In this document: positions 4,341 through 26,244 of the stretch, piece by piece
Position numbering within the stretch: position 1 is the first letter of the stretch
How the letters are laid out: every line of letters starts with the position of its first letter
NCBI GenBank assembly: GCA_947445225.1
Contig: CANFCX010000001.1
Coordinates: 24,189 to 88,188 of the forward strand
Length of the DNA: 64,000 bases
Source: Rhodospirillales bacterium
GTDB taxonomy: Bacteria; Pseudomonadota; Alphaproteobacteria; CACIAM-22H2
Direction of reading: 5' to 3'
The notes under the pieces: generated by a model
What the model was told of the DNA's origin: nothing
Databases searched by the model: none
What the model saw: only the letters and a program-made list of their open reading frames with translations
Position numbers and translations under genes: made by a program

Positions 4341-5869
<1,529 letters not shown>

Positions 5870-5870
<1 letters not shown>

Positions 5871-7602: not shown

Positions 7603-7614
7603 GGCGGTCCCACG

Positions 7615-7651: not shown

Positions 7652-7659
7652 TGCGGGCG

Positions 7660-7892
7660 TGATGCGGCACTTTTCGGGAGGTTCCGGCCGGTCGGCTTTT
7701 GTGGCATATTGCAATGCACTTTGCCAATTTGCATGGGTATTTTCCGCAAAATGCGATGCACAATGAAAGTGTGCTCTGCGGCATAAAATTATCTTATTGA
7801 AAAACAACAATAATTTAGGACGCCGACTTTCGTATAGTTTGGCACGGCGCATGCAGCCCTACTTTAGTAGCGTGCGACAAGGAGTATTTCTA
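7660..7892 (+). promoter_or_regulatory. AT-rich putative promoter/operator region upstream of LuxR-type regulator; contains two TGCRATGCAC boxes
   Basis: GC drops sharply; TTGCAATGCAC and AATGCGATGCAC about 40 nt apart; AGGAG SD 8 nt upstream of ATG at 7893. Confidence 0.3.
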
Positions 7893-8525
7893 ATGAAGCT
7901 TTTGCTCATCCACCCGGCGACCGCGACCCGCTCGGTTCTGTCCCATGCCCTCGGCAAGATGTGGCGCGAGGCCGTGGTGGCCGAACGCGATACCGCCGGG
8001 CCGGCGCCGGGCGTCGACGAGCCGGGCATGATCGTCGTCGATGGTGCGTTGTGCGCTGACATGAACGCCGCCGATCTTCGCCTGTTGTGCCGCGCAGCCG
8101 CAGCCGCGCCCGTGGTCTTGCTCTCGACTTTCGTGGATTTGCCCGGCGTCATCGCCGCTTTCGACCGCGGCATGGCCGGCGTGGTGCCCAAATCCCTTTC
8201 GGTGGCCGCCATGGTTCAGGCGCTGCGCCTGATCGCCTCGGGTGAACGTTTCGTCCCGGCCTCCGTGCTCGCCGCCGTGCGCCCGATGGGCGGTGACCGC
8301 GGCGGGGAGACGCCCACGCTCGATCGCCTCACCCCGCGCGAACGCGAGGTACTCGGCCTGCTGCTCGAAGGCGGCTCGAACAAGGCCATCGGCCGCACCC
8401 TCAGCCTGACCGAAGCCACGGTCAAAGCCTACATGATGACGTTGTGCCGGAAACTCGGCGCGCGCAATCGCGCCCACGCCGTCCGCATCGCCGTCCAAAA
8501 CGGCTTCGCCGCCGCCGCGGCCTGA
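7893..8525 (+). CDS. LuxR/FixJ-family transcriptional regulator with atypical receiver-like N-domain
   Basis: C-terminal LuxR HTH (LTPREREVLGLLLEGGSNKAIGRTLSLTEATVKAYMMTLCRKLGARNRAHAV); N-terminus MKLLLIHPATATRSV lacks canonical acidic pocket. Confidence 0.8.
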   Translation: MKLLLIHPATATRSVLSHALGKMWREAVVAERDTAGPAPGVDEPGMIVVDGALCADMNAADLRLLCRAAAAAPVVLLSTFVDLPGVIAAFDRGMAGVVPKSLSVAAMVQALRLIASGERFVPASVLAAVRPMGGDRGGETPTLDRLTPREREVLGLLLEGGSNKAIGRTLSLTEATVKAYMMTLCRKLGARNRAHAVRIAVQNGFAAAAA

Positions 8526-8632
8526 AGTCGCCGGGGCCGCGAGCCCCACACACAAATTTCCCGTTAGGGCGCGGAGGCACCTCATACCCATCGAGCGATC
8601 GAGGGTGTGAGGGCCTCCCCCCTCGCCTCCAC
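8526..8632. repeat. GC-rich intergenic element between convergent luxR-like gene and priA
   Basis: GAGGGTGTGAGGGCCTCCCCCCTCGCCTCC hairpin-rich segment, related to GGGGGCC family. Confidence 0.4.
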
Positions 8633-10888: not shown

Positions 10889-10976
10889 GGGCTAGACTCT
10901 GCGAAGCGGGGGCGGTTTTCCCCGTCCCCTTATAACGCCGGACCGGCGTGAGCGGCACGATGATCGAGCAAGGACG

Positions 10977-11702
10977 ATGGCCAGCGATCCCGAAAAGATA
11001 ACCAAGGCCCCGACCGCCGTGGACATGGCCGCCGCCGATGTCGCGGTCTATCTGCGCCGGCACCCGGATTTCCTGGACAAAAACCCCGAGATTCTGGCCG
11101 CGATGCTGCCGCCCACGCGGCGCGACGGCGACGGTGTGGTCGATTTCCAGCGCGTCATGGTCGAAAAGCTGCGCGCCGAGGTCGATCGACTGCGTTCGGC
11201 CGAATACGAGCTGGTCTCGCTCGGCCGCAGCAACATGCACCATCAGGGCCGCGTCCATGCCGCCGCGCTCGCGCTGCTGGGCTCCACCACGCTCGAACAC
11301 CTGATCGAACTTATCGGCACCGATCTCGCCGTCGACCTGGACGTGGACGCCGCCACCTTGTGTTTTGAGGCGCCGCCCAATGCCGGCCCCGACGGCGTTG
11401 CCTGCCGGGGCCTGCGCCTGGTCCCGCGCGGCGCGGTCGAACGCCTGCTCGATGGCGGCAAATCCATTGTCCTGCTCGCAGACGAAACCGGCGACAGGGA
11501 TTTGTTCGGCGAGGCCGCCAGCCTGGTCCGTTCGCAGGCCCTGATCCGCATCGAACCGCGGAGGGGCGCACCCTTCGGCATCCTGGCGCTGGGCAGCCGA
11601 CAGCCCGAAAAATTCCACCCCGGCCAGGGAACCGAGCTGCTCGCCTTCCTCGGCCGCGTCGCCGAGCATTGCATCCGGTCATGGTTGGACCGCGCGACCT
11701 GA
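10977..11702 (+). CDS. DUF484-family protein (commonly upstream of xerC)
   Basis: 241 aa; VAVYLRRHPDFLDKNPEIL motif; 3' end overlaps xerC. Confidence 0.75.
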   Translation: MASDPEKITKAPTAVDMAAADVAVYLRRHPDFLDKNPEILAAMLPPTRRDGDGVVDFQRVMVEKLRAEVDRLRSAEYELVSLGRSNMHHQGRVHAAALALLGSTTLEHLIELIGTDLAVDLDVDAATLCFEAPPNAGPDGVACRGLRLVPRGAVERLLDGGKSIVLLADETGDRDLFGEAASLVRSQALIRIEPRRGAPFGILALGSRQPEKFHPGQGTELLAFLGRVAEHCIRSWLDRAT

Positions 11703-12646
11703 GCGAATTCCTTCCCAACCCCGAAACCGCGGACGCGGTCGCCGGCTGGCTCGAATGGCTGGCGACGGAACGCCGCGCCTCCCGCCACACACTGGCCGCC
11801 TATCGCCACGACCTGCTCGCCTTCCTCGGCTTCATGGGTGGACATCTGGGCAGCGCCCCGACCCCGGCCGATCTGGCGCTTCTCCGCACCGGCGATTTCC
11901 GCGCCTTCCTCGCCCGCCGCGCCGGCAACGGCCTGACCGCCGCAACCAATGCCCGCGCGCTGTCGGTCCTGCGTTCGTTTTTTCGCTGGCTCGACCGCAA
12001 CGGCCGCGGGAAATGCGCCGGCCTCGCTGGCCTGCGTTCACCCAAGCTGCCGCGATCGGTGCCGCGCCCGCTGACCGTTGACGACGCACGCAACGCGGTC
12101 GATCAGGTCGGCGATCTCAGCGACGAACCATGGGTGGGTTTACGCGATACCGCATTGCTTTGCCTGCTCTATGGATGTGGCCTGCGTATCGACGAGGCGT
12201 TGTCGCTGAACCGCCGCGACATCGCGCCCCTGCTCCAGGGCAGCGACAGCCTGATCGTGCTCGGCAAGGGCCGCAAGCAGCGCATGGTCCCGGTTCTGCC
12301 CGCCGTGCGTGAGGCGCTGGCCGCCTATCTCGCTGTCTGCCCCCACGCCGCGGGCGTCACCGCGCCAGTGTTCTTCGGCATGCGCGGGAAACGCCTGCAC
12401 GCCGGCATCGTGCAGAAACGCGTGCGGGAGCTGCGCGGCCTCATCGGCTTGCCCGACCGGGCGACACCGCACGCACTCCGCCACAGCTTCGCCACCCATC
12501 TGCTCGCCGCCGGCGGCGATCTGCGCGCCATTCAGGAATTGCTCGGCCACGCCTCGCTGTCGACGACCCAGCGCTACACCGAAATCGACGAAACCCAATT
12601 GCTCGCCGTGTACGATAAGGCGCATCCGCGGGCCCGTCGGGCTTAG
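11669..12646 (+). CDS. xerC: Tyrosine recombinase XerC
   Basis: 325 aa; C-terminal LRHSFATHLLAAGGDLRAIQELLGHASLSTTQRYTEID catalytic region; exact start (11669 vs 11681) uncertain. Confidence 0.9.
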   Translation: MHPVMVGPRDLSEFLPNPETADAVAGWLEWLATERRASRHTLAAYRHDLLAFLGFMGGHLGSAPTPADLALLRTGDFRAFLARRAGNGLTAATNARALSVLRSFFRWLDRNGRGKCAGLAGLRSPKLPRSVPRPLTVDDARNAVDQVGDLSDEPWVGLRDTALLCLLYGCGLRIDEALSLNRRDIAPLLQGSDSLIVLGKGRKQRMVPVLPAVREALAAYLAVCPHAAGVTAPVFFGMRGKRLHAGIVQKRVRELRGLIGLPDRATPHALRHSFATHLLAAGGDLRAIQELLGHASLSTTQRYTEIDETQLLAVYDKAHPRARRA

Positions 12647-12845: not shown

Positions 12846-15800
12846 CTAATTCCCCTGCGCGCGCTGGCCCGGCGGCGTCGCGGCGCGCGGACCGAGGGTT
12901 GCCGGCGCGGGGATGAAATCGCGGAACAGGATTTCGTCGGTGACGGTCCACGGTTGGCCGGCGGGATTGAGATAGAAGCGCCGCATTTCTTCCAGGTTGA
13001 ACGGGCGCGAGCCGATGCGGCCGAGAACGGCGATTTGACCGCCGGTTTCATCCACGCCGCGGTCGCGGTCCAGCCCCTTGGACAGGGACAGGGCCGGCCA
13101 TGAGGTCGGCGCCCAGGCGATCAGCTCGGGTTTGGGCTCGGGGCTGAAGCCGTAGAAATTCGGCTGTTTGTCGGGCGCGGTTAGGTGGACGACCTTGAGC
13201 CCGTTCACGCCGTCGGCGACATAGGCGTAAGCGGTGGCGTTGGTGGTGCCGACGATCACGTCGTGCGCGTCGTTGATCCGGCCTTCGGCGTTGTACATCA
13301 TGTACATGAAGGGCTTTTCGGGATTTTCGACGTCGACGATCGCCAGCCCCTGTTTTTTCGCGCCGACATAGGCATAGGTGCGGGCGACATAGACGCGCTG
13401 CGGATCGTCCATCGGCACGGACGCACCCTCGACCAGGCGCGGTTTGTCGGGATGGGTTACGTCCACGACCTTGAGCCCGGTGCGGTCGGTCACGAACAGA
13501 TAGCGGAATTGCAGGGCAGAGGCGCGCGCGTCGTCGAGCTTCACAACCGCCTCCAGCTTGGGCTTCAGCGGATTGTCCATGTTGAGCACAACGATGCCGG
13601 CATCGGCGGCGACGTAGAAATAATACCCGGCGATGGTCAGGTGGCGTGCGCCCTTGAGGATGTTGTTTTCGTTCCAGGTGACCGCGCGCGTCAGGAAATT
13701 GTTGCGCGGCTCGCCATCGGCCAGCGTGTTGACGTCGGTCGCGATCAAGCCTTCTTCGGAGTCGGTGATGAAGGCGTAGTTGTAGATCGGGTGGAAGGGC
13801 TGCTCCTGATTGGTCACGCGCATCAGGTCGCCCTTGTTGCGGTCGGGATGGATGGGCTGGCTGGTGGGCAACACGACGCAGGTCGCGTTTTTCGAGGCGA
13901 TATGCGTGTCTTGGCCGAACAGGGAGAACGGCGCGCTGATGATGCGCTGCGACACGCTTTTGTTGGCGATGCTGGCGGTGTCATAGACACGCATCCCGCC
14001 CTTGCCTTCGGCGACAAACAGATATTCGCCGCGCAGTTGGAGGCACGACGCCGGGCCGCCGGCGGAATGGGTGAAGGCTCCGAAAGCCGCCGAGTTGGGC
14101 AGCCGCCGGCCGCGCGCTTCGTGTTCGGCGTAAAAATCGGGGTAGGCGTATTTGTGCAGATAACTGCCGATGACCGCCTGCGGCTCTTCGATTTCGGTCA
14201 CCTGCACGGCTTCGATACCGCCGGCGCCGCCGACCCAGGCGTTGTAGCCGACGAAATTGATGAAGTTGGTCCCTTGCAGCAGAAGCTGGGCCATGATCGC
14301 GTTGTTGTCGTTGGCTTGCGACAAATGGCAATCGGTGCAGGTCTTGGTCTCGGTCTTGCGCTCCGTATGCGGATAATGCGGGGCGAAGGCCTGGCTCGAA
14401 TAACCCGATGCGGCGATCGGCGGCTGCTGGATATAGATGCGGTCGCGGTTGATGTTCTGCGACGAAAGCACCAGCGCCGAGGTCGAGCGAATCGGCGCGA
14501 TGATGCCGTTGCGAACCGGCCCGTGGCGGCCGAGCTGGAAGATTTCGTCGCGGGCGACCTGCGGGTTGTACGTGGCGAAGTTGCGGCTTTCGGTGTCTTC
14601 GTAGTGGTGCCGCGGCGTCTTGCGATTGGCCTGGATCGGCAGATGGCAGCCGCCGCAACTGGTCGACCACGACAAATGGCAGGTGAAACACGCCATCTCG
14701 TCGTCGGGATGGGCGAGGTTTTCCTCCCCGATGCCGGGGCCCCATTTCATCGACAGATCCTTGGACATCAGCTTCGCCCGCGCCGCCTTGGCGTTGTATT
14801 GCGGGCTGCTGGGATCGACGCTGTCCTTGACCAGGCTCATTTCCCATTCCAGGCCCGGCCACACCGACGAACGCTGAAACAGCTTGTTGTCGCGCCATTC
14901 GAACCGGGGACGGCCGTCGCTAAGGCGCTTCAAGGCCAAATCGCGCCCGCCCGGCGGCGCCGCCGGGCCGCTGGTGAGCAGCGTCGGATACGCCCTCGCC
15001 GTGCCGTGGCAATCGGCGCATTGGATTTCGATGGCCGCGGCGACCTCGCCGACGATATGGCCGTTGTTGTGTGCGTCCTGCGAGAAATGGCAATCGACGC
15101 ATTGCATGCCGACGTCGACATGGATCGACGACATGTGGACGGCCTTGCTGAATTTGTCCTTGTCGTCATTGGCGACTTGTTTGCCCGCCGCATCCAGCAG
15201 ATTGCCCTTGCGGTCGCGCTTGAAGATGGCGCGGAAGTTCCAGCCATGGCCGTGATAATCGGCGAATTGCGTGTCCTTGAGCGTCGGGTTGAGTTCCGCC
15301 ACCTTCCTGAGGAATTCGGCGTCGCCCCATTTGCCGCGGATGGCGGCTTCTTCGGGGTTGCGCATCAGGATGGCGTGTTCTTCCTCGGTGGTCGGATATT
15401 TCTGCTTCGCCGGCCACATCGCCTGGGCATCGGATTCATAGTCCCACATCGTGAAGCCGAGCATCGAGTTGAGGAAGATGTTCGGCTGATGCATGTGGCA
15501 GATCATGCATTGGCTGGTCGGGATGGCGTTGGTGAATTCGTGTTTGATCGGGTGCCCGGATTCACCCTTGCGGATGGTGGGATCGGCGGTCTGGGTCGTG
15601 CCGGTGCTGCCGAATTTGGCGTAGGGCCCGGAATGGCGGGGGTCGCGGTCGTTGGCGTAAACGACGTGGCAGGACGAACAGCCGGAATGGCGGAAATCGC
15701 CAGGCTGATCGTTGGTGCCCATCATCCACAAAAAGGGATCGTTCAGGCGTGTCTTGGTGATGTTGATCGCGGGCACGGCGATGCGCAAACCGGTGGCGGG

Positions 15801-16793
15801 CCCGCGGTTGGATTGCCGGATGTCGGGTCGTCCCGGCTCTTCCAGCCGCTGCAAAGCGCCGAGCGAATTGGGCAAGCCGATTTCGGGGAATTGGGTGCCG
15901 ATGTTGCGGCCGCCGCGCTCGAAAATGCGGAAGATGTCCCCCGGGGGGATGACCTCCCAGGCGGGCAGCGGCACCAGCTCGGGCAGGATGCCGCGTTTTT
16001 TCATCGCCTCGGTGGGCGCGACCGGAGCCTTCAGCGAGGCCGGCTGCCCATCGCGGGTATAGCCTTCGCCCAGGATGTAATTCTTGAACGGCAGGATTCC
16101 GTTGTTGTAGGAGGCGCCGCCCCACAACATCGCGCCGGTCGCCATCAGGCTGCGTTCGACCGCCTGAATGGTAAGCATGTGGCAGGCGCCGCAGGCCTCG
16201 CGCGCCACGCGCAGATCGCCGGGGTTGATGAAGCGCACATATTCCGGCGCTTCCTTGATGATCAGGGTGTAGGTCCGTTCCTGATTGGCGCTCGACGGGT
16301 AATGCCAGGTTTCGGGAAAACGCGGCAACACATGGGCGCCGTCCATCGCCGCCCGGTAAGCGGGCTCGTAGACCGGGGCGTGATGTTCTTCGGCATGGGC
16401 GGATTCGGTCGGCTTGATGACGATATGGGCGCCGGGCTTATAGCCGGCGAGCGGGTCCGGTTCATGGCTCGTGTCGGGGGCGTGCGCGGCCGCCTGGTCG
16501 CCGCCGGGCCCATGGCTGCCGGCCGGACGAACCACGGTGGGGTTGCCCCCGTGGCAATCGGCGCAGCCGATATTGAGGGCCGAGTTCTGATGCATGTTGG
16601 GTTGGTCGGTCGCGGTATGGCAGGTCAGACAGCCCGCGCTTTTGGCGTCGGCTTGGGCCTTGGTCTGCCCGGCCGGAGCGGGCGGCGTGAACGCGTATTT
16701 GATGTCACGCGGCTTTTCACCCTCGGCGGCAAAAACCGCGACGGCGACGCCGGAAGCCAACAGGATGCCACAGAATATCCGCCACCCGCGCAT
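12846..16793 (-). CDS. Secreted decahaem c-type cytochrome fused to C-terminal LVIVD-repeat beta-propeller (1315 aa)
   Basis: Signal peptide; ten CxxCH motifs (CLTCH, CADCH, CGACH, CSSCH, CMICH, CVDCH, CADCH, CFTCH, CGGCH, CTDCH) in first ~830 aa; C-terminal repeats LKVVDVTHPDKP / LAIVDVENPEKP / LKVVHLTAPDKQ typical of LVIVD repeats. Confidence 0.85.
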   Translation of the reverse strand: MRGWRIFCGILLASGVAVAVFAAEGEKPRDIKYAFTPPAPAGQTKAQADAKSAGCLTCHTATDQPNMHQNSALNIGCADCHGGNPTVVRPAGSHGPGGDQAAAHAPDTSHEPDPLAGYKPGAHIVIKPTESAHAEEHHAPVYEPAYRAAMDGAHVLPRFPETWHYPSSANQERTYTLIIKEAPEYVRFINPGDLRVAREACGACHMLTIQAVERSLMATGAMLWGGASYNNGILPFKNYILGEGYTRDGQPASLKAPVAPTEAMKKRGILPELVPLPAWEVIPPGDIFRIFERGGRNIGTQFPEIGLPNSLGALQRLEEPGRPDIRQSNRGPATGLRIAVPAINITKTRLNDPFLWMMGTNDQPGDFRHSGCSSCHVVYANDRDPRHSGPYAKFGSTGTTQTADPTIRKGESGHPIKHEFTNAIPTSQCMICHMHQPNIFLNSMLGFTMWDYESDAQAMWPAKQKYPTTEEEHAILMRNPEEAAIRGKWGDAEFLRKVAELNPTLKDTQFADYHGHGWNFRAIFKRDRKGNLLDAAGKQVANDDKDKFSKAVHMSSIHVDVGMQCVDCHFSQDAHNNGHIVGEVAAAIEIQCADCHGTARAYPTLLTSGPAAPPGGRDLALKRLSDGRPRFEWRDNKLFQRSSVWPGLEWEMSLVKDSVDPSSPQYNAKAARAKLMSKDLSMKWGPGIGEENLAHPDDEMACFTCHLSWSTSCGGCHLPIQANRKTPRHHYEDTESRNFATYNPQVARDEIFQLGRHGPVRNGIIAPIRSTSALVLSSQNINRDRIYIQQPPIAASGYSSQAFAPHYPHTERKTETKTCTDCHLSQANDNNAIMAQLLLQGTNFINFVGYNAWVGGAGGIEAVQVTEIEEPQAVIGSYLHKYAYPDFYAEHEARGRRLPNSAAFGAFTHSAGGPASCLQLRGEYLFVAEGKGGMRVYDTASIANKSVSQRIISAPFSLFGQDTHIASKNATCVVLPTSQPIHPDRNKGDLMRVTNQEQPFHPIYNYAFITDSEEGLIATDVNTLADGEPRNNFLTRAVTWNENNILKGARHLTIAGYYFYVAADAGIVVLNMDNPLKPKLEAVVKLDDARASALQFRYLFVTDRTGLKVVDVTHPDKPRLVEGASVPMDDPQRVYVARTYAYVGAKKQGLAIVDVENPEKPFMYMMYNAEGRINDAHDVIVGTTNATAYAYVADGVNGLKVVHLTAPDKQPNFYGFSPEPKPELIAWAPTSWPALSLSKGLDRDRGVDETGGQIAVLGRIGSRPFNLEEMRRFYLNPAGQPWTVTDEILFRDFIPAPATLGPRAATPPGQRAQGN

Positions 16794-16801: not shown

Positions 16802-18688
16802 TCAATAAGTCAGGATCAGATTGGCCAGGACGGAATAAAAGAGGTCCTGGCTGCGGCTGGTTTCGTACAGATCGCGCAGCCCGTCGCTCGGCACCAAGAC
16901 CGCGCCGGACAGCCGGAACACGATGTTCTGCATGAACAGAGGCCGGTAGATCGCGGCGACCGAAAGGTCATAACCGATGTCGTGATGGATGTCGGCCTGG
17001 TTGCGGAGGAATTCGAGCGAGGAGGTATCCATGAATTCCAGCTTGTTGAAATTCGTGGACAGCCGCAGTTCCGGGGTCACGTCCATGTCGGTGCCGAAGC
17101 CGAGCAGCCGGATGCCGGGATTGTTGAAATTGGATTGCCCGATTTCCTTCGACGGGCGCAGCGACGGCAACACGCCGTTGCGGGGCGAAAGGGCGACACC
17201 GCCGCCGCCGATGAAGGGGATCGACTGGCGTATCCAATAGCTGGTGTCGGCGCCGGCGAATTGCGGGTTCTCGAAGATGGCGTCGAAACCCTCTTCCCGG
17301 TTGTCGAAGGGGTCCTTGTCGCCGCTGGCGACCAAAGCGGAGGCGCGCACGCGGATCCAGTCGAAATCGATGGAAGGCTCGATCGCGGCGAAATAGGCGC
17401 GAATGTCCGACTTATCGATTCCGCTGAACTGGTTATGATCGTCGGTGCCAAAGGCGTAATAGGCCGAGCCGGTCAGGTTGAGCCGGCCGAAATGCCCGTC
17501 GCCGTTGAGGCCGAGATAGTGGACATCGTATTTGCGCGGCCGCTGGTCGCCGATCGTGGCCGGGCGCTGCAGGAAGAAGTTCTTGTCGTAGTAGAAATCC
17601 TCGCTCTCGTCGTTGACGTTGTACATATACGTCGCCTGCGAGGTGAAGCCGACCACCGGGAAATCCTGCGCATAGACATTGGCAATATAGATATCGTCCT
17701 TGCGCAGCGGCTGGCCGATGTCGTTGAGGCCGCTATTGGTGTCCTTTTCCAGCCGGCGGAACCAGGCCAGATTGTATTGATAGAGGTTGTTCGAGCGGTT
17801 GCCGAACAGTCGCGCGCCCAACTGAATGTCCTGGAACACGAAGCCGCGGAAATCCGAGGAAAACGGCTGGATGCCGATGCGGATCGAATCGAAATCGTAA
17901 CGGTCCGACACGTTGCGTAGGTGATAGTCGATGAAGCCTTCCTGGAAGGCGATCATGTTGTCGGAGCGCACGGTGCCCTGGTTGGGGTCGGCGAACAGCA
18001 CGCCGCGTTCCTCGACCTCCGCGCGGTTGTATTGAATGACCGGCGTGATGCGGAATTCGTAATCGGGCGGGCGGTAGGCGGTGTCGCCCTTGATCAGCGA
18101 GGCGCTCAAGATCACGGTCTCGACGAACACGTTTTGGTTGGTGTCGCCGAACAGATCGACGGAGTTGGCGCGCCGCGTGGTCGAAATGCCCACCGGAATC
18201 GGCGTGCGCCGCGGCTCGTAGACCGTGTCCGAAATCGCGCTGAGGTTGATGAACCAATCGTCCCACAGCGGGCGGTCGCCTTTGAGCGTGTTCTGGTTGT
18301 ACGGGTCCCACCAGCGTTCGTTGACGCCGATCGCCTCGATCAGGCGCCAGCGATCCGGGATCGGGATGAATTCGCGCGGCAACACCGGCGACGGCGGCGG
18401 CACGGCACCGGGATCGGTGATCGGAGCCACGCGCGGCGGCGCGGGCGGCGGCGCGCCGGGCCGCCGCTGATCCTGGGCGACGATGGGCGCGACGGCGCCG
18501 GGTTGGGGAATTCCGAAATTGCCAGGGCTTCTCCCCGCCGGGGCGAGGAGAGGCGATTCCTCCTTGCCGGCCCAGGCCGGAACGGGAAGGCTCACCGCCG
18601 CCAGGGCCAAAATAAGGGGCAGCGAAGCCAATCCCGAAAGTCCGACCGTCTTTGTCCGCCGGCGCATCCTAGATGACCCCGCACACAT
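16802..18688 (-). CDS. Outer-membrane beta-barrel protein (porin-like, ~620 aa)
   Basis: Signal peptide MRRRTKTVGLSGLASLPLILALAAVSLPVPAWA (ATG at 18667 probably the true start); alternating amphipathic strands; C-terminal ...LANLILTY aromatic terminus typical of OMPs. Confidence 0.7.
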   Translation of the reverse strand: MCAGSSRMRRRTKTVGLSGLASLPLILALAAVSLPVPAWAGKEESPLLAPAGRSPGNFGIPQPGAVAPIVAQDQRRPGAPPPAPPRVAPITDPGAVPPPSPVLPREFIPIPDRWRLIEAIGVNERWWDPYNQNTLKGDRPLWDDWFINLSAISDTVYEPRRTPIPVGISTTRRANSVDLFGDTNQNVFVETVILSASLIKGDTAYRPPDYEFRITPVIQYNRAEVEERGVLFADPNQGTVRSDNMIAFQEGFIDYHLRNVSDRYDFDSIRIGIQPFSSDFRGFVFQDIQLGARLFGNRSNNLYQYNLAWFRRLEKDTNSGLNDIGQPLRKDDIYIANVYAQDFPVVGFTSQATYMYNVNDESEDFYYDKNFFLQRPATIGDQRPRKYDVHYLGLNGDGHFGRLNLTGSAYYAFGTDDHNQFSGIDKSDIRAYFAAIEPSIDFDWIRVRASALVASGDKDPFDNREEGFDAIFENPQFAGADTSYWIRQSIPFIGGGGVALSPRNGVLPSLRPSKEIGQSNFNNPGIRLLGFGTDMDVTPELRLSTNFNKLEFMDTSSLEFLRNQADIHHDIGYDLSVAAIYRPLFMQNIVFRLSGAVLVPSDGLRDLYETSRSQDLFYSVLANLILTY

Positions 18689-20558
18689 TCTGCGCCTTGG
18701 TAATGCCCAGGAAGGGGGTGAACGGGCAACTGACGTAACGCAGCCGAGTGCCGCGCGGGGACAGGTTGTCCGACCGCACGGCCGGGCGCGCGTTGCTCAA
18801 TCCGTTGCCCTTGCCGCCATGATAGAGGCCAAGCGCGGCGATCATGTCGTCCTGGTCGATGCCATCGCCCGAAACGCCGACGCCGCCGACCAACACGCCG
18901 TTGCGGTAGATCGGCACGCCGCCGGCGAATATCTGGATGCCGTTGGCCAGCCGGTTGGACCCGCCGGCCGCGGCGACCGCTGCCAGCCCGGTGCAGCCAG
19001 CGGCGTTGGTGGCGTTGCCGGGGTTGGTCAGGTGATTGGCGATGTCGGTGGAGACGAGGTCGAGCTGCAGCCCGGTGCTGAACGGGCTCCATTGCTGAAA
19101 GGGACGGCTCAACGGCCCCACCGACTGGCCATCGACGCCATCGGGGAAATAGGGGCGCGCGATGTTGCCGATGGCGCGAGCGCTATACGCGATGCCGTCG
19201 GCGAAAGCGGTCGGCCCGATCAAGGACCGTGCCTGGGCAATGTAATCGACGGCCAGCGCCAGCGCGGTGATTTCCGCGCCCGCGGTCGTCCGCGAGAAAA
19301 ACACGGCGGTTCGGCCTTTTTGCAGTGACACGTCGGTGCCGAAGACGGGCGCATCGGGGGTACGCACCAAACCCAGGACCAGGCCATTGGTGTCGACCAC
19401 ACTGATGGTGACCTGGGCGTAGCTGCCCAGCGGGCGCCGGATTTGCGCACGCGCCAGAAGCGCCACATCGAGGGCATGGCGCAGGATGGAGTTGACCTCG
19501 GCGGCGGTCAGCACATTGGCCGCGCCACCCACCACGGTGGCGGCGTCGCCACCGGCGGTCGGCGGAAAACGGTTGGCGCCGGCCGCGTTTTCCAACACGA
19601 AGGCGCGGCCGTTGTTGAAGACGCCGCCCGGATCGGGGATGTAGCCCGAACCCGCCGCGCCGAAAACCTGACCGGCGATGACGGCGGCGTTGGCATAACC
19701 GGCGACCGCGACCAGCGCCCCACCGGCGGGCGGGAAAGCCGGGGCCGAGCTGGGGTTGCTGCGGAAATCGGCCGGCGTGGCGTCCGAATAGCGGAGCGTG
19801 CGACCACCGGCGGTGATGCGGTTGGCGCGAATGTCGATGGGCGCGTCGAAGCCGTTGGTCCCGGCCAGCGCGATGACCTCGTCGGGATCGACGTCGCGAT
19901 TGATGATGTCGAGATCCAGGCTGTAGACACCATCGGAGATGGCGCCGACGCCGCCGACGACCCGGCCGTTCTTGTACAAGGGGAAGCCGCCGGTATCGGC
20001 GGACAACCCGGCAGGCGAACGTTTGGGGCCGCGCGTGGCCACGCCGGGGAATTGCAGGTTCAGGTCCGAACACGGCAATTGGCTGAATTGAACGCCGAAC
20101 AGCGGGCCGCCGGGCTGTTGTTTTTCGCCGACGTTGAAATGTTCCTGGACGATCTGGCTGGCCACCCGGGTGGAAAACGCGTTGCCGGCGGACGACAGAT
20201 AAGCGCCGGTGACCGCCTTGGCGATGGCCAAGAGGGTATCGGTATTGGCGATGGCGGCGCCTTCGAGGCCGGTGGCGACACCGCGCCCGGAACTGACCGT
20301 GATCGTCGTTGCGGCGCCGGTCATGCGGAAGACGCCGAGCACGTTGCCGACGCGATCGACGACGGCGATGGTGGCCAACCGGCCGCGCGCCGTGGCCTCC
20401 GTCACCGCCTGCGAAATCACCACGCCGACATCGGCGACCGTGAGGTTCTGCGCGCGCGCCGGAGCGGCGGACAGGGCGGTAAGACCGGCTAGACCCAGCA
20501 GGACCGCGAGAACCCGCCGCGCGACATAGTTCCCGGTCATGGCGGTCCTCGCGGTCAT
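18669..20558 (-). CDS. Secreted protein with two tandem GlcG/HbpS-like (DUF336, haem-binding/degrading-type) domains
   Basis: Signal peptide; motifs RLATIAVVDRVGNVLGVFRMTGA and QVTISVVDTNGLVLGLVRTPDAPVFGTDVSLQKGRTAVFFS, plus GGVGVSGDGIDQDDMIAALG typical of GlcG family. Confidence 0.7.
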   Translation of the reverse strand: MTARTAMTGNYVARRVLAVLLGLAGLTALSAAPARAQNLTVADVGVVISQAVTEATARGRLATIAVVDRVGNVLGVFRMTGAATTITVSSGRGVATGLEGAAIANTDTLLAIAKAVTGAYLSSAGNAFSTRVASQIVQEHFNVGEKQQPGGPLFGVQFSQLPCSDLNLQFPGVATRGPKRSPAGLSADTGGFPLYKNGRVVGGVGAISDGVYSLDLDIINRDVDPDEVIALAGTNGFDAPIDIRANRITAGGRTLRYSDATPADFRSNPSSAPAFPPAGGALVAVAGYANAAVIAGQVFGAAGSGYIPDPGGVFNNGRAFVLENAAGANRFPPTAGGDAATVVGGAANVLTAAEVNSILRHALDVALLARAQIRRPLGSYAQVTISVVDTNGLVLGLVRTPDAPVFGTDVSLQKGRTAVFFSRTTAGAEITALALAVDYIAQARSLIGPTAFADGIAYSARAIGNIARPYFPDGVDGQSVGPLSRPFQQWSPFSTGLQLDLVSTDIANHLTNPGNATNAAGCTGLAAVAAAGGSNRLANGIQIFAGGVPIYRNGVLVGGVGVSGDGIDQDDMIAALGLYHGGKGNGLSNARPAVRSDNLSPRGTRLRYVSCPFTPFLGITKAQNVCGVI

Positions 20559-21025
20559 TGCGCGATACCCACCCGGAACACGCCGAATTTGAAGCTGTCG
20601 GCCGTGCGATAGGCAACGATCACGTTAAAAGGGAATTCCTGGCCGGTGAGGTCTTCCTTCAACACCTTGAAGACGAGCCGGTTGCCGACGGGCTGGATGC
20701 GATTGTCGATCAGATGGTCGGTGTCGCCGTCCCAGCGCACCCAATAGCCGAGATTGCTGCGCTGCAGCAGCAAATTTCCCCAGGGTTTGGCGATGACATA
20801 GGTGGCGAGCGGCTGATCGCCGTGCAGATCGATTTCGCGGATGATCTCGGCGGCCTCCGGGCGAATGGCGATCGGCGCCAGCATCGCACCTTCAACGCTC
20901 AACGCCTCGCCCCGGCCGGACGCCGGGGCCAGCAACGCCAACGCCATGAAAAAAAAGGTAAATCCAAATCTGGACGGACCGGCTTTCGGTCGTGTTCCAC
21001 TTGGATCGTGCGCCAACAGCGCCAT
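20555..21025 (-). CDS. Small secreted hypothetical protein (~156 aa)
   Basis: In-frame ATG (MALLAHDPSG...) downstream of cytochrome stop; hydrophobic FGFTFFFMALALLAPASG signal-like segment; 4-nt overlap with next gene. Confidence 0.5.
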   Translation of the reverse strand: MALLAHDPSGTRPKAGPSRFGFTFFFMALALLAPASGRGEALSVEGAMLAPIAIRPEAAEIIREIDLHGDQPLATYVIAKPWGNLLLQRSNLGYWVRWDGDTDHLIDNRIQPVGNRLVFKVLKEDLTGQEFPFNVIVAYRTADSFKFGVFRVGIAQ

Positions 21026-21072
21026 CCGGTCATCCCCCATTTTTTTTGCCCGGCCAACAAAGCCGCGCCACT

Positions 21073-22779
21073 TTAACGCGGCGCGCCCGTTTGGCCAACC
21101 CCCGGCGCGCCGCCGACGGCTTGCGGACGCATCGGACCCATGGCCGGCGTGTGGAAGACGTGGCAGGCCACGCAGGTCGACGGCACCAACGTAGTCACTT
21201 CTTCCCCGCCATGGCAGCGGCGGCAATTGGCGATCCCCGGGAGCAGGACCTCGGAACTGGCAACGGATTTCGGCGCGGCGTGGCAATCGACGCAATCGGT
21301 GTTTTTGTGTTTGCTGTGATCGAATTTGCCCTTGGGCATCCAGGTCGCCGCCACGAACACCGGCTTGACCCGGAAATTGGGTCTCTCGTCGAGCCGGGTC
21401 GTCCGTTCGACGAGGTGGCAACTCCCGCAGATGCTCTTGCCGTAGACGATCTCGATGGTCGCATCGGCGCGGCTGCGCGCCCAGGCCAGCGCTTCGGTGC
21501 GCGCCGCTTCCTCGATCGGCGTGCCGGCACGGCGACGCACGGCGGCCGGCGCCGTGGGATCCTCGAAACCGCCTTCGAGTGCGACGCGGCCGTAGAAATC
21601 GTTGAGGACCTTGGCGACTTCGTCGGGTTTGCCATGCGGCACTTCGCGGTCGAGCGCCTGGGCCTCGAACTTCAATTTGTGGCAATCGCGGCAATCGGTC
21701 TCCATGTCAACCGCACGCATGCCCACGCCGCCGGTCTCCGGGCGGTGGCAATCATTGCAGACCATTTTCTGCAAGCCGGTGGGGCCACGCACGCCGGCTG
21801 GCACCAAATGTTTGTCATGCGGGAAGATTAGGTTGGAATTTTCCTTCAGCGCCGGATCACCGATCGCCAACCGCGCCAGGGTCCGCGTTGCCGGGTCGGT
21901 CACCACCGACGGCCGAAATTCGGGGTGATCGCGGCCGAAATCGCTGACGTTGATCAGCTTGGTCGTGGGGATGATCGCGGTCAGCCGCACATGGCAATCG
22001 TCGCACAAGGCTTGCGCCGTCTGGATCGCCGGCTGCCGGCCTTGATGTTCCTTGTGGCAAGACGCGCAGCGAGTCTCTTCCAGTGCCGGCAGTTGCACCG
22101 TCTTCACATCGGCGTGGTGGGCGATGTCGCTGTGGCAGGTAAGGCAGGCCTGGTCCTGGACCATGATGAAGGGCCGCTCGTGGCAGGTCGTGCAATCACT
22201 CGCGAAATATTTGTGCACGCCGGAGATTTCGCCGGATTCCCATGACTTGTCCGCCGCGATCGGCATCGCCGTCATGCTTTTGTGAAGGTCGGGTATGAAA
22301 AAGGCAGCGACCGGAAGGACCAGGAAAAGCAGGAGCACGGTGGCGAACGCGGTCCACGACAATACGCGTTTGCTGAACGCGGCATCACCCAGGCGGGCAT
22401 GGCTGCGCTGCGTTAGTTCGGCGAGATCGTCTCCCAGCGGCTGCACCAATTCGACGGTAACCGCGACGCCATAGCCAGGCGGCGCTTCCACCACATCGAT
22501 CTTGTAGGGACCGACGGCGATCGAATCGCCGGGCCGGACACGACCTGAATTGGCGGCGGCGCCATTGATGGAAAGATCGTTGCTGCCAACCGCGGAGGCG
22601 TAGACCTGGCCCTCGCGCACATGTATTTCGGCGTGGTCGAGCGCGACCCGCGGATCAGGAAGATAGACTTCGTTCTTGGTGCCGCGGCCGATGCGGATGA
22701 ATTCCACGGTGGCGTCTTGGTCGCGCCGGGAGACGCCACGATTGCCGCGCCGAGTCAAATAGCCGACTTGGACAAGCAC
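21073..22779 (-). CDS. FHA domain - transmembrane helix - periplasmic decahaem c-type cytochrome fusion (568 aa)
   Basis: N-terminal FHA (IRIGRGTKNEVYLPDPRVALDHAEIHVREGQVYASAVGSNDLSINGAAANSGRVRPGDSIAVGPYKI), TM VLSWTAFATVLLLFLVLPVAAFFIP, then ten CxxCH motifs (CTTCH, CLTCH, CASCH, CDDCH, CNDCH, CRDCH, CGSCH, CVDCH, CRRCH, CVACH); GTG start with GGGAG SD. Confidence 0.85.
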   Translation of the reverse strand: MLVQVGYLTRRGNRGVSRRDQDATVEFIRIGRGTKNEVYLPDPRVALDHAEIHVREGQVYASAVGSNDLSINGAAANSGRVRPGDSIAVGPYKIDVVEAPPGYGVAVTVELVQPLGDDLAELTQRSHARLGDAAFSKRVLSWTAFATVLLLFLVLPVAAFFIPDLHKSMTAMPIAADKSWESGEISGVHKYFASDCTTCHERPFIMVQDQACLTCHSDIAHHADVKTVQLPALEETRCASCHKEHQGRQPAIQTAQALCDDCHVRLTAIIPTTKLINVSDFGRDHPEFRPSVVTDPATRTLARLAIGDPALKENSNLIFPHDKHLVPAGVRGPTGLQKMVCNDCHRPETGGVGMRAVDMETDCRDCHKLKFEAQALDREVPHGKPDEVAKVLNDFYGRVALEGGFEDPTAPAAVRRRAGTPIEEAARTEALAWARSRADATIEIVYGKSICGSCHLVERTTRLDERPNFRVKPVFVAATWMPKGKFDHSKHKNTDCVDCHAAPKSVASSEVLLPGIANCRRCHGGEEVTTLVPSTCVACHVFHTPAMGPMRPQAVGGAPGVGQTGAPR

Positions 22780-22803: not shown

Positions 22804-23661
22804 TTACCAGTAGAAGAAAACGGAGAAAACGTGGGTCGTCAGCGCCGCCAAAAGGCCGACCGACAACGGCACGTGGAACATCAGCCAAATTTCCAGGAAA
22901 GCCCGGTATTGCACGTCGCGCCGCGCGCGACCGACAAGGTCGCTCTTGCGGCTCAACAAGGTCAGCAATTTACGCACGGCGACGGCGTCTTCCACCGAGA
23001 CCTTGGTCGCGAGTTGTTTGATCCTGGCCAGCGCGCGCGAAGTCGGGCAATTGGGATCGCGGCCGGAAAGCTGACGCCACACCGACCCGCCGATCTGAGT
23101 ATTGCGTCCGGAATCGAGCACCGCCCGCGTGATCTCGTCGGGCAGTCCCATGGAAACTTCGCGGCTTTCGGTATCGAGCGCGGCGATGCGCGTGAAAATC
23201 TCGGTCAGTGTCAGCCCGCCGCGGTTCTGGGTCATCAAGGCGGGATACCGTTGATAGAAAAACACGCCGAACACGCCCGACAGGATGACCAGCATCATCA
23301 AGGTGTAGGCAAGCGTATGCACGTTCCAGCCGAACTGGAACCCGGTGTGCAGCGTGGCCACGACGATCAGCGCGAGGCCGAGATAGACATGCGCCGATAG
23401 CCAGCCCTGAAGTTTCGTCGGACCCTGGTTGTACCGCCGTTTACGTACGCCGAACCACATCAGCCACAGGATCAAGCCCGCGCCGATCGTGCCCAACACA
23501 TAACCGAGCCACGTGCCGCCATTGGGCGGGTCCAACGGGCTGTGGGCGCCGTAGACGATCGCAGCCGCCAGCGCGCCCAGGACGGCGACCTTCAAATACC
23601 GGAAGTTGCGGTAGACGAGATAGGATTGATGCATCGTCTTTTGGCTGTTGGCCGACCTCAA
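22804..23661 (-). CDS. Polytopic membrane protein with conserved intramembrane histidines (candidate b-type haem/quinol-interacting subunit)
   Basis: 285 aa, five predicted TM helices each with His (SAHVYLG, TLHTGF, NVHTLAY, MFHVPLS, TTHVFSV); TTG start overlapping upstream stop (TTGA). Confidence 0.55.
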   Translation of the reverse strand: MRSANSQKTMHQSYLVYRNFRYLKVAVLGALAAAIVYGAHSPLDPPNGGTWLGYVLGTIGAGLILWLMWFGVRKRRYNQGPTKLQGWLSAHVYLGLALIVVATLHTGFQFGWNVHTLAYTLMMLVILSGVFGVFFYQRYPALMTQNRGGLTLTEIFTRIAALDTESREVSMGLPDEITRAVLDSGRNTQIGGSVWRQLSGRDPNCPTSRALARIKQLATKVSVEDAVAVRKLLTLLSRKSDLVGRARRDVQYRAFLEIWLMFHVPLSVGLLAALTTHVFSVFFYW

Positions 23662-26057
23662 AGACCCCGGTTAGACAGCGAGAAGAATTCCTCGGGGCTG
23701 ACACGAATGGCGGCGCCGGTCGGACAGGCCCGCACGCAGGACGGGCCGCCTTCGATGCCTTTGCACATGTCGCATTTCACCGCCATCTTGCGTTTGTTCG
23801 GGTCTTTTTTCTTGCCGTGGGTGGCTTCCCAATCCTCGCCCGGCCCGTGGCCCAGCCCGAACAACATCCAGGCCAGCAAGCCCGGCTTGGCCGGCGGCTC
23901 CGCCGACATGTGAATGACGTGATAAGGACAATTGCGCTCGCAATTGCCGCAACCGATGCATTTTTCGTCGATGAACACTTCACCATTGGGCGAACGGTGG
24001 ATGGCGTCGGCCGGGCAATCGGACATGCAATGCGGGTGTTCGCAATGCCGGCACGAGGTTGGCACATGGATCGAGGCATAGGTCGGGCCGGCTTCGCGAT
24101 CCAGCCGCGACACCCCGTGATGGGTCTCGGCGCAGGCCTTTTCGCAATTGTCGCACCGCACGCACAGCGATTCGTCGATCAACAGAACGTCGGTCGCCTC
24201 GCCCAAACCTTGGTCGAGCAGGAACTGCATCAGATTCGAATGGTCGGGCCGGCCTTCCATGCGGGCGTTTTCGACGAGCCGTGCCTGGAACCGAGATTCG
24301 ACCTCGACGCGCAACTCGGGCGAGCGATCGAGCAGGCCGCGGAAGGCGCCGCCATCGAGTTTGATGGCCTCCGTCGCCACCGCCGCCCGCACCGTGGCGG
24401 TGCGCGGGCTCTTGGTCAGCAGCGCCATTTCGCCGACATAATGGCCGGCGGGGACATAGGACAAAACCACGTCGCGGCCGCCCAGGTTGCGCGCCACGGT
24501 CACCGACCCGCTGCGGATCAAATAGACGTTGTCGCCGATATCGCCTTCCTTGATCAGCACGTCGCCGGCGCTGAAGGACTGGATCGTGGCCGTGCGCACG
24601 ACATCGACCAGGTCGCGCTTGGAGACCTGCGGCGCTAGATGCGTCTGCACCTGGCGGATCATGGCGGTTTCGTCGAGCACACGTTTAGCCGCGGCGATCG
24701 AACGGGTCAGCTTGATAACCTGCCGGCGCGGGGTCTCGATCAACACGCAATCGGCGCCCGCCACCACCGTCGCCGTGCGCCGGCGGCCGGAGATCAAACC
24801 CATCTCGCCGAAGAATTCGCCGGTCTTCAGCGTCACCTTGATCGCTGGGTTTTCGGCGCTGACCTGGACATCGACCGACCCCGACAGGATCGAATAGAAG
24901 CTGTCGGAATAATCGTTGCGCTTGAAAACGATCTCGCCCTGTTTGGGCACATGGACGTCGCTGTCGAGCAGGAATTCGCGAAGCTGCAGCTTGGTCAACG
25001 AGGAGAACATCGGCACGCGCTGCTGCACGCCCTCCAGGAACTGCGAGACGGTCACCCCTTGCAGCCCCGTGAGTTTTGCCTCGAGCAGCGGCTCGTCCGC
25101 CGGCTTCACCTCATGCCCGAGGATATATTCGACCACCTCGTAGCCCTGGTTCATGCAGTGTTTGATCAGGGGATAACCGGCGAGCGCGCCGATGATGTAC
25201 AGCCCCTTCACGTTCGATTCGTAGCTGTCGCTGACCCCCGGAACCGAGGCCGGATCGGCGTTGGGGAACACGATGCCGCAGGCCTCGACGAATTTGCGCG
25301 GCGGCAGGGCGCCGATACGGGCGATGACCCGGTGGCACTTGACCACCGCCTCGCCCTCCGGCGTTTTCAGGAAAATGGCGCTGGGATCGGTCTCGACCTT
25401 AATGACCTTGGTATTGAAATAACACTGGATGCGGCCTTCCTTGATGGCCGATTCGATCAGCGCGACGTTGCCCGCCTTGGCGCGCGCGAAATCACCCATG
25501 ACGTTGACGACGATGACCTCGTTTTGGGCGGCCAGCGCGATGGCGTTTTCGAGCCCGGCATCACCGGCGCCGATCACAACGATGGTTTCGTCTTTGTATT
25601 CTTCCGGGTCGTCGAGTTGGTACTGGACGTTGGGGCCGGTTTCGCCGGGTACGCCGAGGGTGCGGATATTGCCCTGCAACCCAATGGCGAGCACGACGGC
25701 ATCGGCGGTGAGCGTTTGTTTGTTGGCGAGCGTGATCGTGAAGATCGCGCCTTCCTTCTTGATGCCCGCGACATCGGCGTTTTGGCGCAGGTTGAATTTC
25801 AACTCGCCGGCGCTTTTGTCCCAGGAACCGAGGATGGTTTCGCGGGCGCCTTCCTTGAATTGAAGATCGCTGCGCAGGGGCAGGACCTCCGGCGTCGCCA
25901 TGACGTGTTTTTTCTTCTGATACTTGTAGATCGTATCGGAAAGATGGGTGGTGCGTTCGAGCAGCACATAAGACGCGCCACGCTTGGCCGCGCGTCCCGC
26001 CGCGCTTAATCCGGCCGGGCCCGATCCGACAATCGCGATCGCATAGTGTTCGGCCAT
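23658..26057 (-). CDS. FAD/NAD(P)-binding oxidoreductase fused to two cNMP-binding domains and a C-terminal 4x[4Fe-4S] ferredoxin domain (799 aa)
   Basis: GSGPAG and GAGDAG dinucleotide folds; two CRP-type cNMP signatures (FGEMGLISGRRRTATVVA; VGEMALLTKSPRTATVRA); four Cys clusters CVRCDNCEKAC, CRHCEHPHCMSDCP, CIGCGNCERNCP, CDMCKG..CVRACP. Confidence 0.85.
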   Translation of the reverse strand: MAEHYAIAIVGSGPAGLSAAGRAAKRGASYVLLERTTHLSDTIYKYQKKKHVMATPEVLPLRSDLQFKEGARETILGSWDKSAGELKFNLRQNADVAGIKKEGAIFTITLANKQTLTADAVVLAIGLQGNIRTLGVPGETGPNVQYQLDDPEEYKDETIVVIGAGDAGLENAIALAAQNEVIVVNVMGDFARAKAGNVALIESAIKEGRIQCYFNTKVIKVETDPSAIFLKTPEGEAVVKCHRVIARIGALPPRKFVEACGIVFPNADPASVPGVSDSYESNVKGLYIIGALAGYPLIKHCMNQGYEVVEYILGHEVKPADEPLLEAKLTGLQGVTVSQFLEGVQQRVPMFSSLTKLQLREFLLDSDVHVPKQGEIVFKRNDYSDSFYSILSGSVDVQVSAENPAIKVTLKTGEFFGEMGLISGRRRTATVVAGADCVLIETPRRQVIKLTRSIAAAKRVLDETAMIRQVQTHLAPQVSKRDLVDVVRTATIQSFSAGDVLIKEGDIGDNVYLIRSGSVTVARNLGGRDVVLSYVPAGHYVGEMALLTKSPRTATVRAAVATEAIKLDGGAFRGLLDRSPELRVEVESRFQARLVENARMEGRPDHSNLMQFLLDQGLGEATDVLLIDESLCVRCDNCEKACAETHHGVSRLDREAGPTYASIHVPTSCRHCEHPHCMSDCPADAIHRSPNGEVFIDEKCIGCGNCERNCPYHVIHMSAEPPAKPGLLAWMLFGLGHGPGEDWEATHGKKKDPNKRKMAVKCDMCKGIEGGPSCVRACPTGAAIRVSPEEFFSLSNRGL

Positions 26058-26244
26058 GCCGGTCCGCCCCCTCGGACACGTCAGCGTTTGTCGAGACCCC
26101 CCCGAACCCGAATCGACGCTTTACGAAAGGCCCGCGCCGCCAGGATTTCATATACACGTTAGGGTTATAGACCGACGGTTGTCAATTTCGGAGTGTCCTT
26201 CTACAGTGCATTTCTGTCCGGTCGAACGCACCCGCAACAGGGGG

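Follow-up and report, generated by a model that had tools for sequence, protein, structure and literature searches.

Organization of the locus

The 64,000-nucleotide stretch of DNA analysed here (the window) comes from a Rhodospirillales bacterium (assembly GCA_947445225.1, contig CANFCX010000001.1, positions 24,189 to 88,188 of the forward strand). It carries on its minus strand a gene for a beta-barrel protein that stands directly between two others. Upstream is the gene of an exported protein with two HbpS/GlcG-like domains in tandem (the HbpS-like protein), and downstream is that of a very large protein with ten CxxCH haem motifs and a C-terminal domain of LVIVD repeats (the decahaem-LVIVD protein). 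These three genes make up an outer module. Further upstream, on the same strand, an inner module of three more genes encodes a likely supply of electrons (Table 1). The conclusion that we hold with most confidence is that the central protein is an outer-membrane beta-barrel of the AlgE fold, dedicated to the decahaem module. A cytochrome-associated outer-membrane barrel on the AlgE fold, with an HbpS-like protein as third partner, is a barrel family for which neither Pfam nor NCBIfam has a model.

The barrel lies in an uninterrupted open reading frame (ORF) of 628 codons (16802..18688, minus strand), whose G+C content at third codon positions (0.83) is coding-like and similar to that of the flanking genes. 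The first ATG of the frame, at 18688, falls within the upstream gene. The start is most likely the ATG at 18667 (M8 of the ORF), giving a product of 621 residues, because it comes 1 nt after the stop codon (TAG) of the upstream gene and is aligned with the first Met of all homologs in an alignment of 20 sequences (alignment A1). Both the 621- and the 628-residue versions of the protein are present in the protein database. The product begins with a signal peptide, which has a hydrophobic segment and is variable in alignment A1, and continues with a Pro-rich linker that is presumably periplasmic. Its C-terminus reads ...LILTY, and all 20 aligned sequences close with Y or F. The protein has no CxxCH and, in all its 621 residues, no Cys.

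The decahaem-LVIVD gene follows at once, with 8 nt between the barrel stop codon and its ATG. The sequence-only reading of this ORF was thus right about its extent and size, its C-terminal aromatic residue and the giant cytochrome gene, with its ten CxxCH, just downstream. It had also described the barrel as sandwiched between cytochrome genes, and this holds for the downstream side only: the upstream neighbour encodes the HbpS-like protein, which is without CxxCH, and the other multihaem ORF comes two genes further up. There are only two ORFs with two or more CxxCH in the 64-kb window, 12846-16793 and 21073-22779, and both are decahaem.

An 18-strand barrel of the AlgE fold

The AlphaFold2 model of the barrel, built with 116 homologs, has a mean predicted local distance difference test score (pLDDT) of 82.7 and shows 18 long antiparallel strands spanning residues 138 to 620. 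The turns past the even-numbered strands are short (2-9 residues) and the loops past the odd-numbered strands are longer. Within the strands, hydropathy alternates as expected of a membrane barrel, averaging +0.89 at lipid-facing and -0.56 at lumen-facing positions. The sequence-only reading had proposed an outer-membrane beta-barrel and had held up a soluble beta-rich periplasmic protein as the contrary case. The 18-strand model, the signal peptide, the alternation of hydropathy and the terminal aromatic residue all bear out the barrel, and the protein is not of the soluble kind.

Among solved structures, the nearest to the model by Foldseek is AlgE of Pseudomonas aeruginosa (PDB 3rbh, 4xnk; Pfam family Alginate_exp, PF13372), an 18-strand barrel on which that of the window can be superposed. 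The likeness is one of fold much more than of sequence, identity being only 10-14%. The Alginate_exp model gives the query 13.2 bits (E 0.039), below its cut-off of 25.2; 3 of 41 diverse relatives match it at E<0.1, and a precomputed PF13372 match is found in 2 of the 120 best listed homologs. The two proteins also differ in their parts and their company. The barrel of the window has in addition an N-terminal linker and motif and a 71-residue loop L7. It is partnered by a haem-binding-like protein and a decahaem cytochrome. AlgE is encoded together with alg8, alg44, algK, algX and other genes of alginate synthesis and export, and its pore is electropositive and gated by loops L2 and T8. There are no alginate or polysaccharide genes near the barrel of the window, whose surroundings are redox and housekeeping genes, and this is also the case at the Nisaea and Sphingobium loci. 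Channels of the OprD/Occ type (OccD2, 3sy9; OpdQ, 3t24; OccAB3, 5dl7) are more distant still: their Foldseek E-values are about 10^6 times weaker than that of AlgE, and the OprD family is absent among the Pfam matches of the query and its 41 relatives. Nor are Occ channels known to share operons with redox enzymes.

Other searches at the level of sequence found no family for the protein. Pfam and NCBIfam together gave no above-threshold match, and a sequence search of the PDB, whether with the protein alone or with a profile of 41 sequences, returned chance matches only. The MtrB_PioB model (PF11854) has no match in the query at E<=0.01 or in the 41 diverse relatives at E<=0.1, in agreement with the earlier remark that the sequence is not obviously MtrB-like. 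A comparison with the Cyc2 family had been suggested as well. Cyc2 is likewise a small barrel implicated in outer-membrane redox chemistry; however, it has its own N-terminal CxxCH haem domain, and the absence of CxxCH and of Cys from the barrel here sets the comparison aside.

Conserved and variable faces of the barrel

The two ends of the barrel are for the most part differently conserved. With the usual rule that both termini are periplasmic, on which the assignment of loops and turns rests, the short turns would face the periplasm and the long loops the medium. Conservation is high in the periplasmic turns (0.63), in the N-terminal motif that precedes strand 1 (0.53) and in two of the long loops, L3 (0.84) and L7 (0.57). 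It is low in L1, L2, L5, L8 and L9 (0.29-0.39), which are the most variable parts of the barrel. The N-terminal motif has the consensus PxPDRWRL...WDPYNQNxLKGDxP, and its R106 is invariant even in the diverse set (relatives at 30-60% identity). By likeness to loops of OprD and AlgE, L3 and L7 are probably folded into the lumen, L7 as a constriction. This pattern, with conserved turns, N-terminal motif, L3 and L7 beside variable L1, L2, L5, L8 and L9, is easier to reconcile with a periplasmic partner and a constriction inside the lumen than with a partner at the cell surface.

Other members of the family carry AMIN, SH3 and FN3 domains (Pfam) upstream of the N-terminal motif, or, in the same region, repeats that look SPOR-like by eye. 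Since such domains or repeats are found there, the N-terminus of the barrel is suggested to be periplasmic, possibly touching the cell wall. The long family members were also considered as Rosetta-stone fusions joining the barrel to its partners. None of them has an HbpS-like or a cytochrome domain; they carry AMIN, SH3, FN3 and SPOR-like repeats instead. Another idea that did not survive is that conserved His residues hold a haem within the barrel. The candidates H249 and H392 (model numbering) are lumen-facing by the alternation rule, but in the distant cytochrome-linked members P0257 and P0213 these positions hold Arg, Lys or other residues.

Distribution of the family and constancy of its partners

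The barrel family is large. It has about 8000 matching clusters at 90% identity, with the best 120 at 59-72% identity, and 1575 clusters at 50% identity at E<=1e-3. A scan with one genome per species places it in at least 583 species. Loci were scanned with alignment A1, and the 80 that were kept are the closest relatives (53-69% identity), mostly in Alpha-, Beta- and Gammaproteobacteria. Carriers include SAR116, Rhodospirillaceae, Caulobacteraceae, Sphingomonadales, Lysobacterales, Burkholderiales, Methylococcales and Halieaceae, and the family is also found on Sphingobium megaplasmids. Full-text searches of the literature yielded no account of the barrel or the decahaem-LVIVD protein, singly or as a pair; they turned up only the related PCC4 and ptd clusters discussed below, while matches concerning Tenderiales, Idiomarina and Telmatospirillum proved to have no connection.

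The immediate neighbours of the barrel are the same throughout these loci. Gene order was counted by tblastn of the window proteins against 82 loci, mainly close relatives, the denominators being the loci with enough flanking sequence. The decahaem-LVIVD gene is directly downstream of the barrel on the same strand in all 79 such loci, the HbpS-like gene is upstream in 73 of 73, and the inner module is upstream of the outer module in 50 of 59.

These counts bear on the simplest alternative, that a general porin, or a soluble beta-rich periplasmic protein, lies beside the cytochrome genes by chance. The lack of any family model that matches the barrel is what can be said for it. The fold result contradicts it, as do the invariant order of the genes through three proteobacterial classes and junctions with the adjacent genes of just 1 nt and 8 nt. 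Identities of 59-72% among the best 120 listed homologs are also considered high for a general porin. We regard this alternative as very improbable.

More distant members show which parts of the arrangement can change. At 41% identity, the protein downstream has LVIVD repeats and 9 CxxCH, and a fusion of an HbpS-like protein with an M10 metalloprotease lies upstream (locus L084). At 35%, the barrel is followed by the decahaem-LVIVD protein, a monohaem cytochrome c, a NapC/NirT tetrahaem protein and a cNMP protein, and no HbpS-like gene is present (L086). At 36%, barrel and cytochrome stand alone, with no electron-input genes nearby (L088), and at yet another locus an FHA protein precedes the barrel and then the cytochrome (L087). 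Because all four loci keep the pair and differ in the input genes, the constant unit is made up of barrel and decahaem-LVIVD protein; what changes is the set of genes for electron input.

A gene for a small monohaem cytochrome c after the decahaem-LVIVD gene is also seen in Nisaea (L001, 15655-16302); in L086 the corresponding stretch, which includes the NapC/NirT tetrahaem gene, is 10512-11598. The window has no such gene, since its operon runs up at the end against a convergent gene for a tyrosine recombinase.

In one clade at 33-34% identity the cytochrome itself is missing. Here the barrel is followed by a signal-bearing aminopeptidase P (AMP_N plus M24) (L083, 190-2922; L085, 5839-11097); L085 also has genes for an HbpS-like protein and an M1 peptidase near the barrel. 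The role of the barrel is therefore not intrinsically one of electron conduction.

The partners of the outer module

The HbpS-like protein of the window has an ordinary signal peptide and is not a lipoprotein. In about 35 of its 73 homologs (L002, L005, L016, L025 and some 30 further loci), a lipobox is followed by a long Gly/Ser/Pro-rich linker, e.g., ...LLAACGGGGG, LILSSCGGGGSDGGSGGSPTPAP. The residue after the lipidated Cys is Gly or Ser. By the sorting rule of E. coli, Gly or Ser in this position points to an outer-membrane lipoprotein. Going by these sequences, the lipobox-bearing homologs are probably anchored in a membrane, most simply the outer one. Export by the Tat (twin-arginine translocation) route was considered for the HbpS-like protein and dropped, an RR motif being found in just 4 of the 73 homologs.

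The decahaem-LVIVD protein of the window has a plain signal peptide without a lipobox. Four of 80 homologs match a lipobox regular expression, and these matches were judged spurious. The ten CxxCH are spaced at about 80 residues per haem, and the LVIVD repeats presumably form a beta-propeller. The protein is 60-72% identical across Alpha-, Beta- and Gammaproteobacteria. On account of the spacing of the haems and the identity across classes, the sequence is more what one would expect in an enzyme than in a surface wire that evolves fast. An extracellular location, as in the sequence-only reading, is an assumption; we infer a periplasmic one.

The nearness of the barrel to AlgE, and the lipoprotein nature of many HbpS-like homologs, bring up the alternative of an export or assembly pore. 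In such a scheme the barrel would be the outlet for a linear polymer, or would translocate or display the product of a neighbouring gene (the cytochrome, the peptidase or the HbpS-like lipoprotein), with the HbpS-like lipoprotein in the part of AlgK. AlgE is the nearest solved structure, and the pairing of a barrel with a lipoprotein recalls AlgE and AlgK of the alginate system. The gene that follows the barrel varies by clade, cytochrome or aminopeptidase P, like cargo, and a passage through the barrel is conceivable for the Gly/Ser/Pro linker that comes after the lipidated Cys in HbpS-like homologs. However, neither the window nor the related loci examined have genes for a polysaccharide synthase or alg genes, and the HbpS-like protein of the window has no lipobox. 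A 140-kDa protein that has taken up its haems and folded on the periplasmic side cannot, from what is known of cytochrome c maturation, get through an 18-strand barrel. An export pore seems to us a long shot, although a better one than chance proximity.

The electron-input module

The three products of the inner module would together make a path for electrons as far as the periplasm. They are a cytoplasmic protein of 799 residues with flavin, nicotinamide-nucleotide and iron-sulphur motifs, a 285-residue membrane protein, and a 568-residue protein that joins a cytoplasmic FHA domain to a periplasmic decahaem domain through a single transmembrane helix. The membrane protein has the motifs W87x3H91x13H105 and W259x3H263x13H277 and the sequence SGVFG at residue 128, and is a putative dihaem cytochrome b of the PCC3/PCC4 type. 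The inner-membrane proteins of PCC3 and PCC4, with five transmembrane helices, SGxxG and two Wx3Hx13H, were read as dihaem b-type and ferric-reductase-like (He et al., 2017; PMC5566968). Two forms of signalling seem to control the module, since the anchored decahaem protein has an FHA domain (phosphothreonine-binding) and the 799-residue NAD(P)H/FAD/4Fe-4S protein has two cyclic-nucleotide-binding domains.

Both PCC4 and ptdABCDEFG are putative porin-cytochrome clusters, explicitly of unknown function (PCC4, He et al., 2017; ptd, Elbon et al., bioRxiv 10.1101/2023.11.21.568154). We take them to be the same cluster, given their matching 4-, 5- and 10-haem content. The inner trio of PCC4 subgroup II and ptd (iron-sulphur protein, five-helix membrane protein and decahaem) is the same as that of the window, and both systems have a gene for an outer-membrane barrel. 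The outer parts differ: HbpS-like protein, barrel and decahaem-LVIVD protein here; pentahaem PtdA, porin PtdB and tetrahaem PtdD there. Tetra- and pentahaem cytochromes were not found in the window, where both multihaem ORFs are decahaem.

Between the two modules lies a small gene of about 150 codons without a family match; only part of the related loci have it, at 30-52% identity. A terminator-like G+C rich hairpin (21062-21085, minus strand) is also present between the modules, at the end of the FHA-decahaem gene; the scan for such hairpins was overall not above chance. In Sphingobium the inner and the outer modules are separate, divergent units.

Table 1. Features of the barrel gene and of the two modules in the window (window coordinates; all on the minus strand)
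Feature	Position	Strand	Description
Decahaem-LVIVD protein, 1315 aa (outer module, downstream partner)	12846..16793	-	Signal peptide; 10 CxxCH in residues 55-823; C-terminal LVIVD-repeat domain
Barrel gene (outer module)	16802..18667	-	621 aa from ATG 18667; stop codon 16802-16804
Barrel: 18-strand beta-barrel domain, residues 138-621	16805..18256	-	Periplasmic turns 2-9 aa; C-terminus ...LILTY
Barrel: loop L7, residues 448-518, 71 aa	17114..17326	-	Highly conserved: SGD.DPFD...FENPQFAGADTSYWIRQ..GGGG...SKE.GQSNFNNPG
Barrel: N-terminal motif before strand 1, residues 97-137	18257..18379	-	PREFIPIPDRWRL...WDPYNQNTLKGDRP; conserved, mean conservation 0.53
Barrel: Pro-rich linker, residues 34-96	18380..18568	-	pLDDT <50; mean conservation 0.22
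Barrel: signal peptide, model residues 1-33	18569..18667	-	MRRRTKTVG...LPVPAWA, then GKEE; read from sequence
Tandem HbpS-like protein, 629 aa, exported (outer module, upstream partner)	18669..20558	-	Two HbpS/GlcG-like domains; no CxxCH
Small protein, ~150 aa, between the decahaem and HbpS-like genes	20555..21025	-	N-terminal hydrophobic segment; no family match
Decahaem protein, 568 aa (inner module, part 3)	21073..22779	-	Cytoplasmic FHA; one transmembrane helix (137-167); periplasmic domain with 10 CxxCH
Membrane protein, 285 aa (inner module, part 2)	22804..23661	-	~5 transmembrane helices; two Wx3Hx13H motifs; SGxxG
Cytoplasmic protein, 799 aa (inner module, part 1)	23658..26057	-	FAD/NAD(P)-binding domain; two cNMP-binding domains; two 4Fe-4S motifs

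Surroundings in the window

The strand of the operon also carries, some 3 kb upstream, a gene for a GspD-type secretin (29157-31295, minus strand; Secretin, Secretin_N and GspD N0 domains). No further type II secretion gene is present among the neighbouring ORFs that were scanned, and a GspD homolog is found at one other locus only (L039), most loci being too short upstream to judge. In Nisaea, a prepilin peptidase (A24) gene abuts the operon upstream (L001, 1820-2551). These genes for a secretin and a prepilin peptidase may be linked to export of the decahaem protein to the surface.

An ORF of 625 codons without a family match (26056-27933, plus strand) diverges from the start of the operon, and its homologs adjoin the operon at three other loci (L006, L015 and L024). 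Beside it is a 401-codon ORF with a PPC (pre-peptidase C-terminal) domain (27912-29117, plus strand). Beyond the 3' end of the cytochrome gene, window positions 1360-12646 are ordinary core chromosome, with genes for F1 ATP synthase subunits, a GNAT acetyltransferase and a LuxR-type regulator, and priA; a DUF484 gene is also there, beside the tyrosine-recombinase gene (Phage_integrase family). The G+C content of the cytochrome cluster, 0.62-0.68, is inside the range of the window, 0.60-0.71.

A channel and docking platform or an electron conduit?

Porin-cytochrome complexes are the accepted route for electrons across the Gram-negative outer membrane. The structure of MtrCAB shows MtrB as a barrel of 26 strands, and every validated porin-cytochrome case known uses a wide barrel of the MtrB type. 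The locus has two things in common with MtrB, PioB and MtoB: the barrel shares an operon with multihaem cytochromes, and the neighbours imply a trans-envelope route for electrons. It departs from them in that the barrel gene has no small MtrA-like decahaem gene adjacent to it and the large cytochrome has no lipobox of the MtrC/OmcA type. Further, at 18 strands the barrel is not wide enough for a decahaem wire of the MtrA type.

The sequence-only reading had cast the protein as the porin partner of a cytochrome after the manner of MtrB, PioB or OmbB. The partnership stands, the decahaem gene following in all 79 loci with enough flank. The mechanism is not supported, in view of the number of strands, loop L7, which probably constricts the lumen, the missing lipobox and the peptidase clade, and a sheath of the MtrB type is unlikely. 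In its probable working, the nearest systems are the channels of OprD/Occ and AlgE; in genomic logic they are the putative PCC4/ptd clusters and, more loosely, MtrCAB.

We give an even chance to the view that the barrel is a solute-specific channel and a docking platform, not a sleeve round a cytochrome. It is favoured over a sheath because the 18-strand fold is narrow, the periplasmic face is conserved while the surface loops are mostly variable, the cytochrome is without a lipobox and a related clade, which has no need of electron conduction, is linked to peptidases. In such a scheme, the three products of the outer module (tandem HbpS-like protein, barrel and soluble decahaem-LVIVD cytochrome) would act together. 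The inner module would take electrons from NAD(P)H in the cytoplasm and pass them through the inner membrane, and in other lineages the electrons would come from quinol via NapC/NirT; this direction of flow we infer. The periplasmic turns and the N-terminal motif would hold the HbpS-like protein, the decahaem-LVIVD enzyme or both beneath the outer membrane. A constricted and gated lumen would then pass a redox substrate or product between the medium and the periplasmic enzyme.

Several considerations weigh against such a channel. Small solutes usually get through general porins, which gives little reason for a channel of their own. The constriction of the pore and the position of L7 are argued by analogy, and the orientation of loops and turns hangs on the rule that both termini are periplasmic. 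Accepted porin-cytochrome clusters have their genes in the same order as here: periplasmic partner, barrel, large multihaem protein. The GspD-type secretin 3 kb upstream, together with the prepilin peptidase of Nisaea, could mean that the cytochrome is exported to the surface. Finally, the model of its 826-residue haem domain has a pLDDT of 44.6, too poor to judge the likeness to an enzyme.

The main competitor is a porin-cytochrome conduit of a new design, which we consider possible and clearly less probable than the channel. The barrel would hold the decahaem-LVIVD protein at the surface, the whole being an extracellular reductase driven by NAD(P)H, and electrons would cross by way of something inserted in the barrel, e.g., a segment of the cytochrome or a haem on the HbpS-like partner. 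The order of the genes and the tight coupling to a multihaem protein are in accord with such a conduit, as are upstream genes that encode a full path for electrons as far as the periplasm and an inner module of the type assigned to the putative clusters PCC4 and ptd. Pfam associates LVIVD repeats with cell-surface proteins, and Cyc2 probably joins a small barrel with a single haem domain; the nearby secretin and prepilin-peptidase genes would also suit export to the surface. On the other hand, 18 strands make a barrel far narrower than the 26 of MtrB. The barrel has no CxxCH, and the two conserved lumen-facing His are not kept in distant cytochrome-linked members, which leaves a barrel-lodged haem unsupported. 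Conservation in the protein is lowest in L1, L2, L5, L8 and L9, which are five of its nine predicted surface loops, and the cytochrome, without a convincing lipobox, is unusually conserved for a surface protein. Finally, the related clade in which the barrel works with a peptidase weighs against a conduit.

A more specific proposal is that an HbpS-like lipoprotein, bearing a haem that is not of the c type, and an 18-strand barrel of the AlgE fold replace the sheath and wire of MtrAB. They would link the NAD(P)H-fed periplasmic decahaem chain to a decahaem/propeller enzyme at the surface. The outer module would then be a hitherto unrecognised type of redox machine spanning the outer membrane, and one with many carriers among aerobic heterotrophs (SAR116, Rhodospirillales, Caulobacteraceae, Sphingomonadales, Lysobacterales and Burkholderiales among them). 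We think this arrangement unlikely, if still well worth keeping in mind.

Implications

The module keeps 60-70% identity over its at least 583 species, and many of its carriers are heterotrophs that abound in freshwater and the sea and are not known for metal respiration. In these bacteria a narrow barrel, a multihaem cytochrome and an HbpS-like partner appear to draw on cytoplasmic NAD(P)H, with control by cyclic nucleotides and FHA domains. Two of the carriers, Nisaea acidiphila and Sphingobium herbicidovorans MH, are in culture, and the module is thus open to experiment. If the barrel is a dedicated substrate channel of a periplasmic decahaem enzyme, it points to a redox reaction that is common and as yet unknown. 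If it is a new kind of conduit, it widens the structural rules of extracellular electron transfer.

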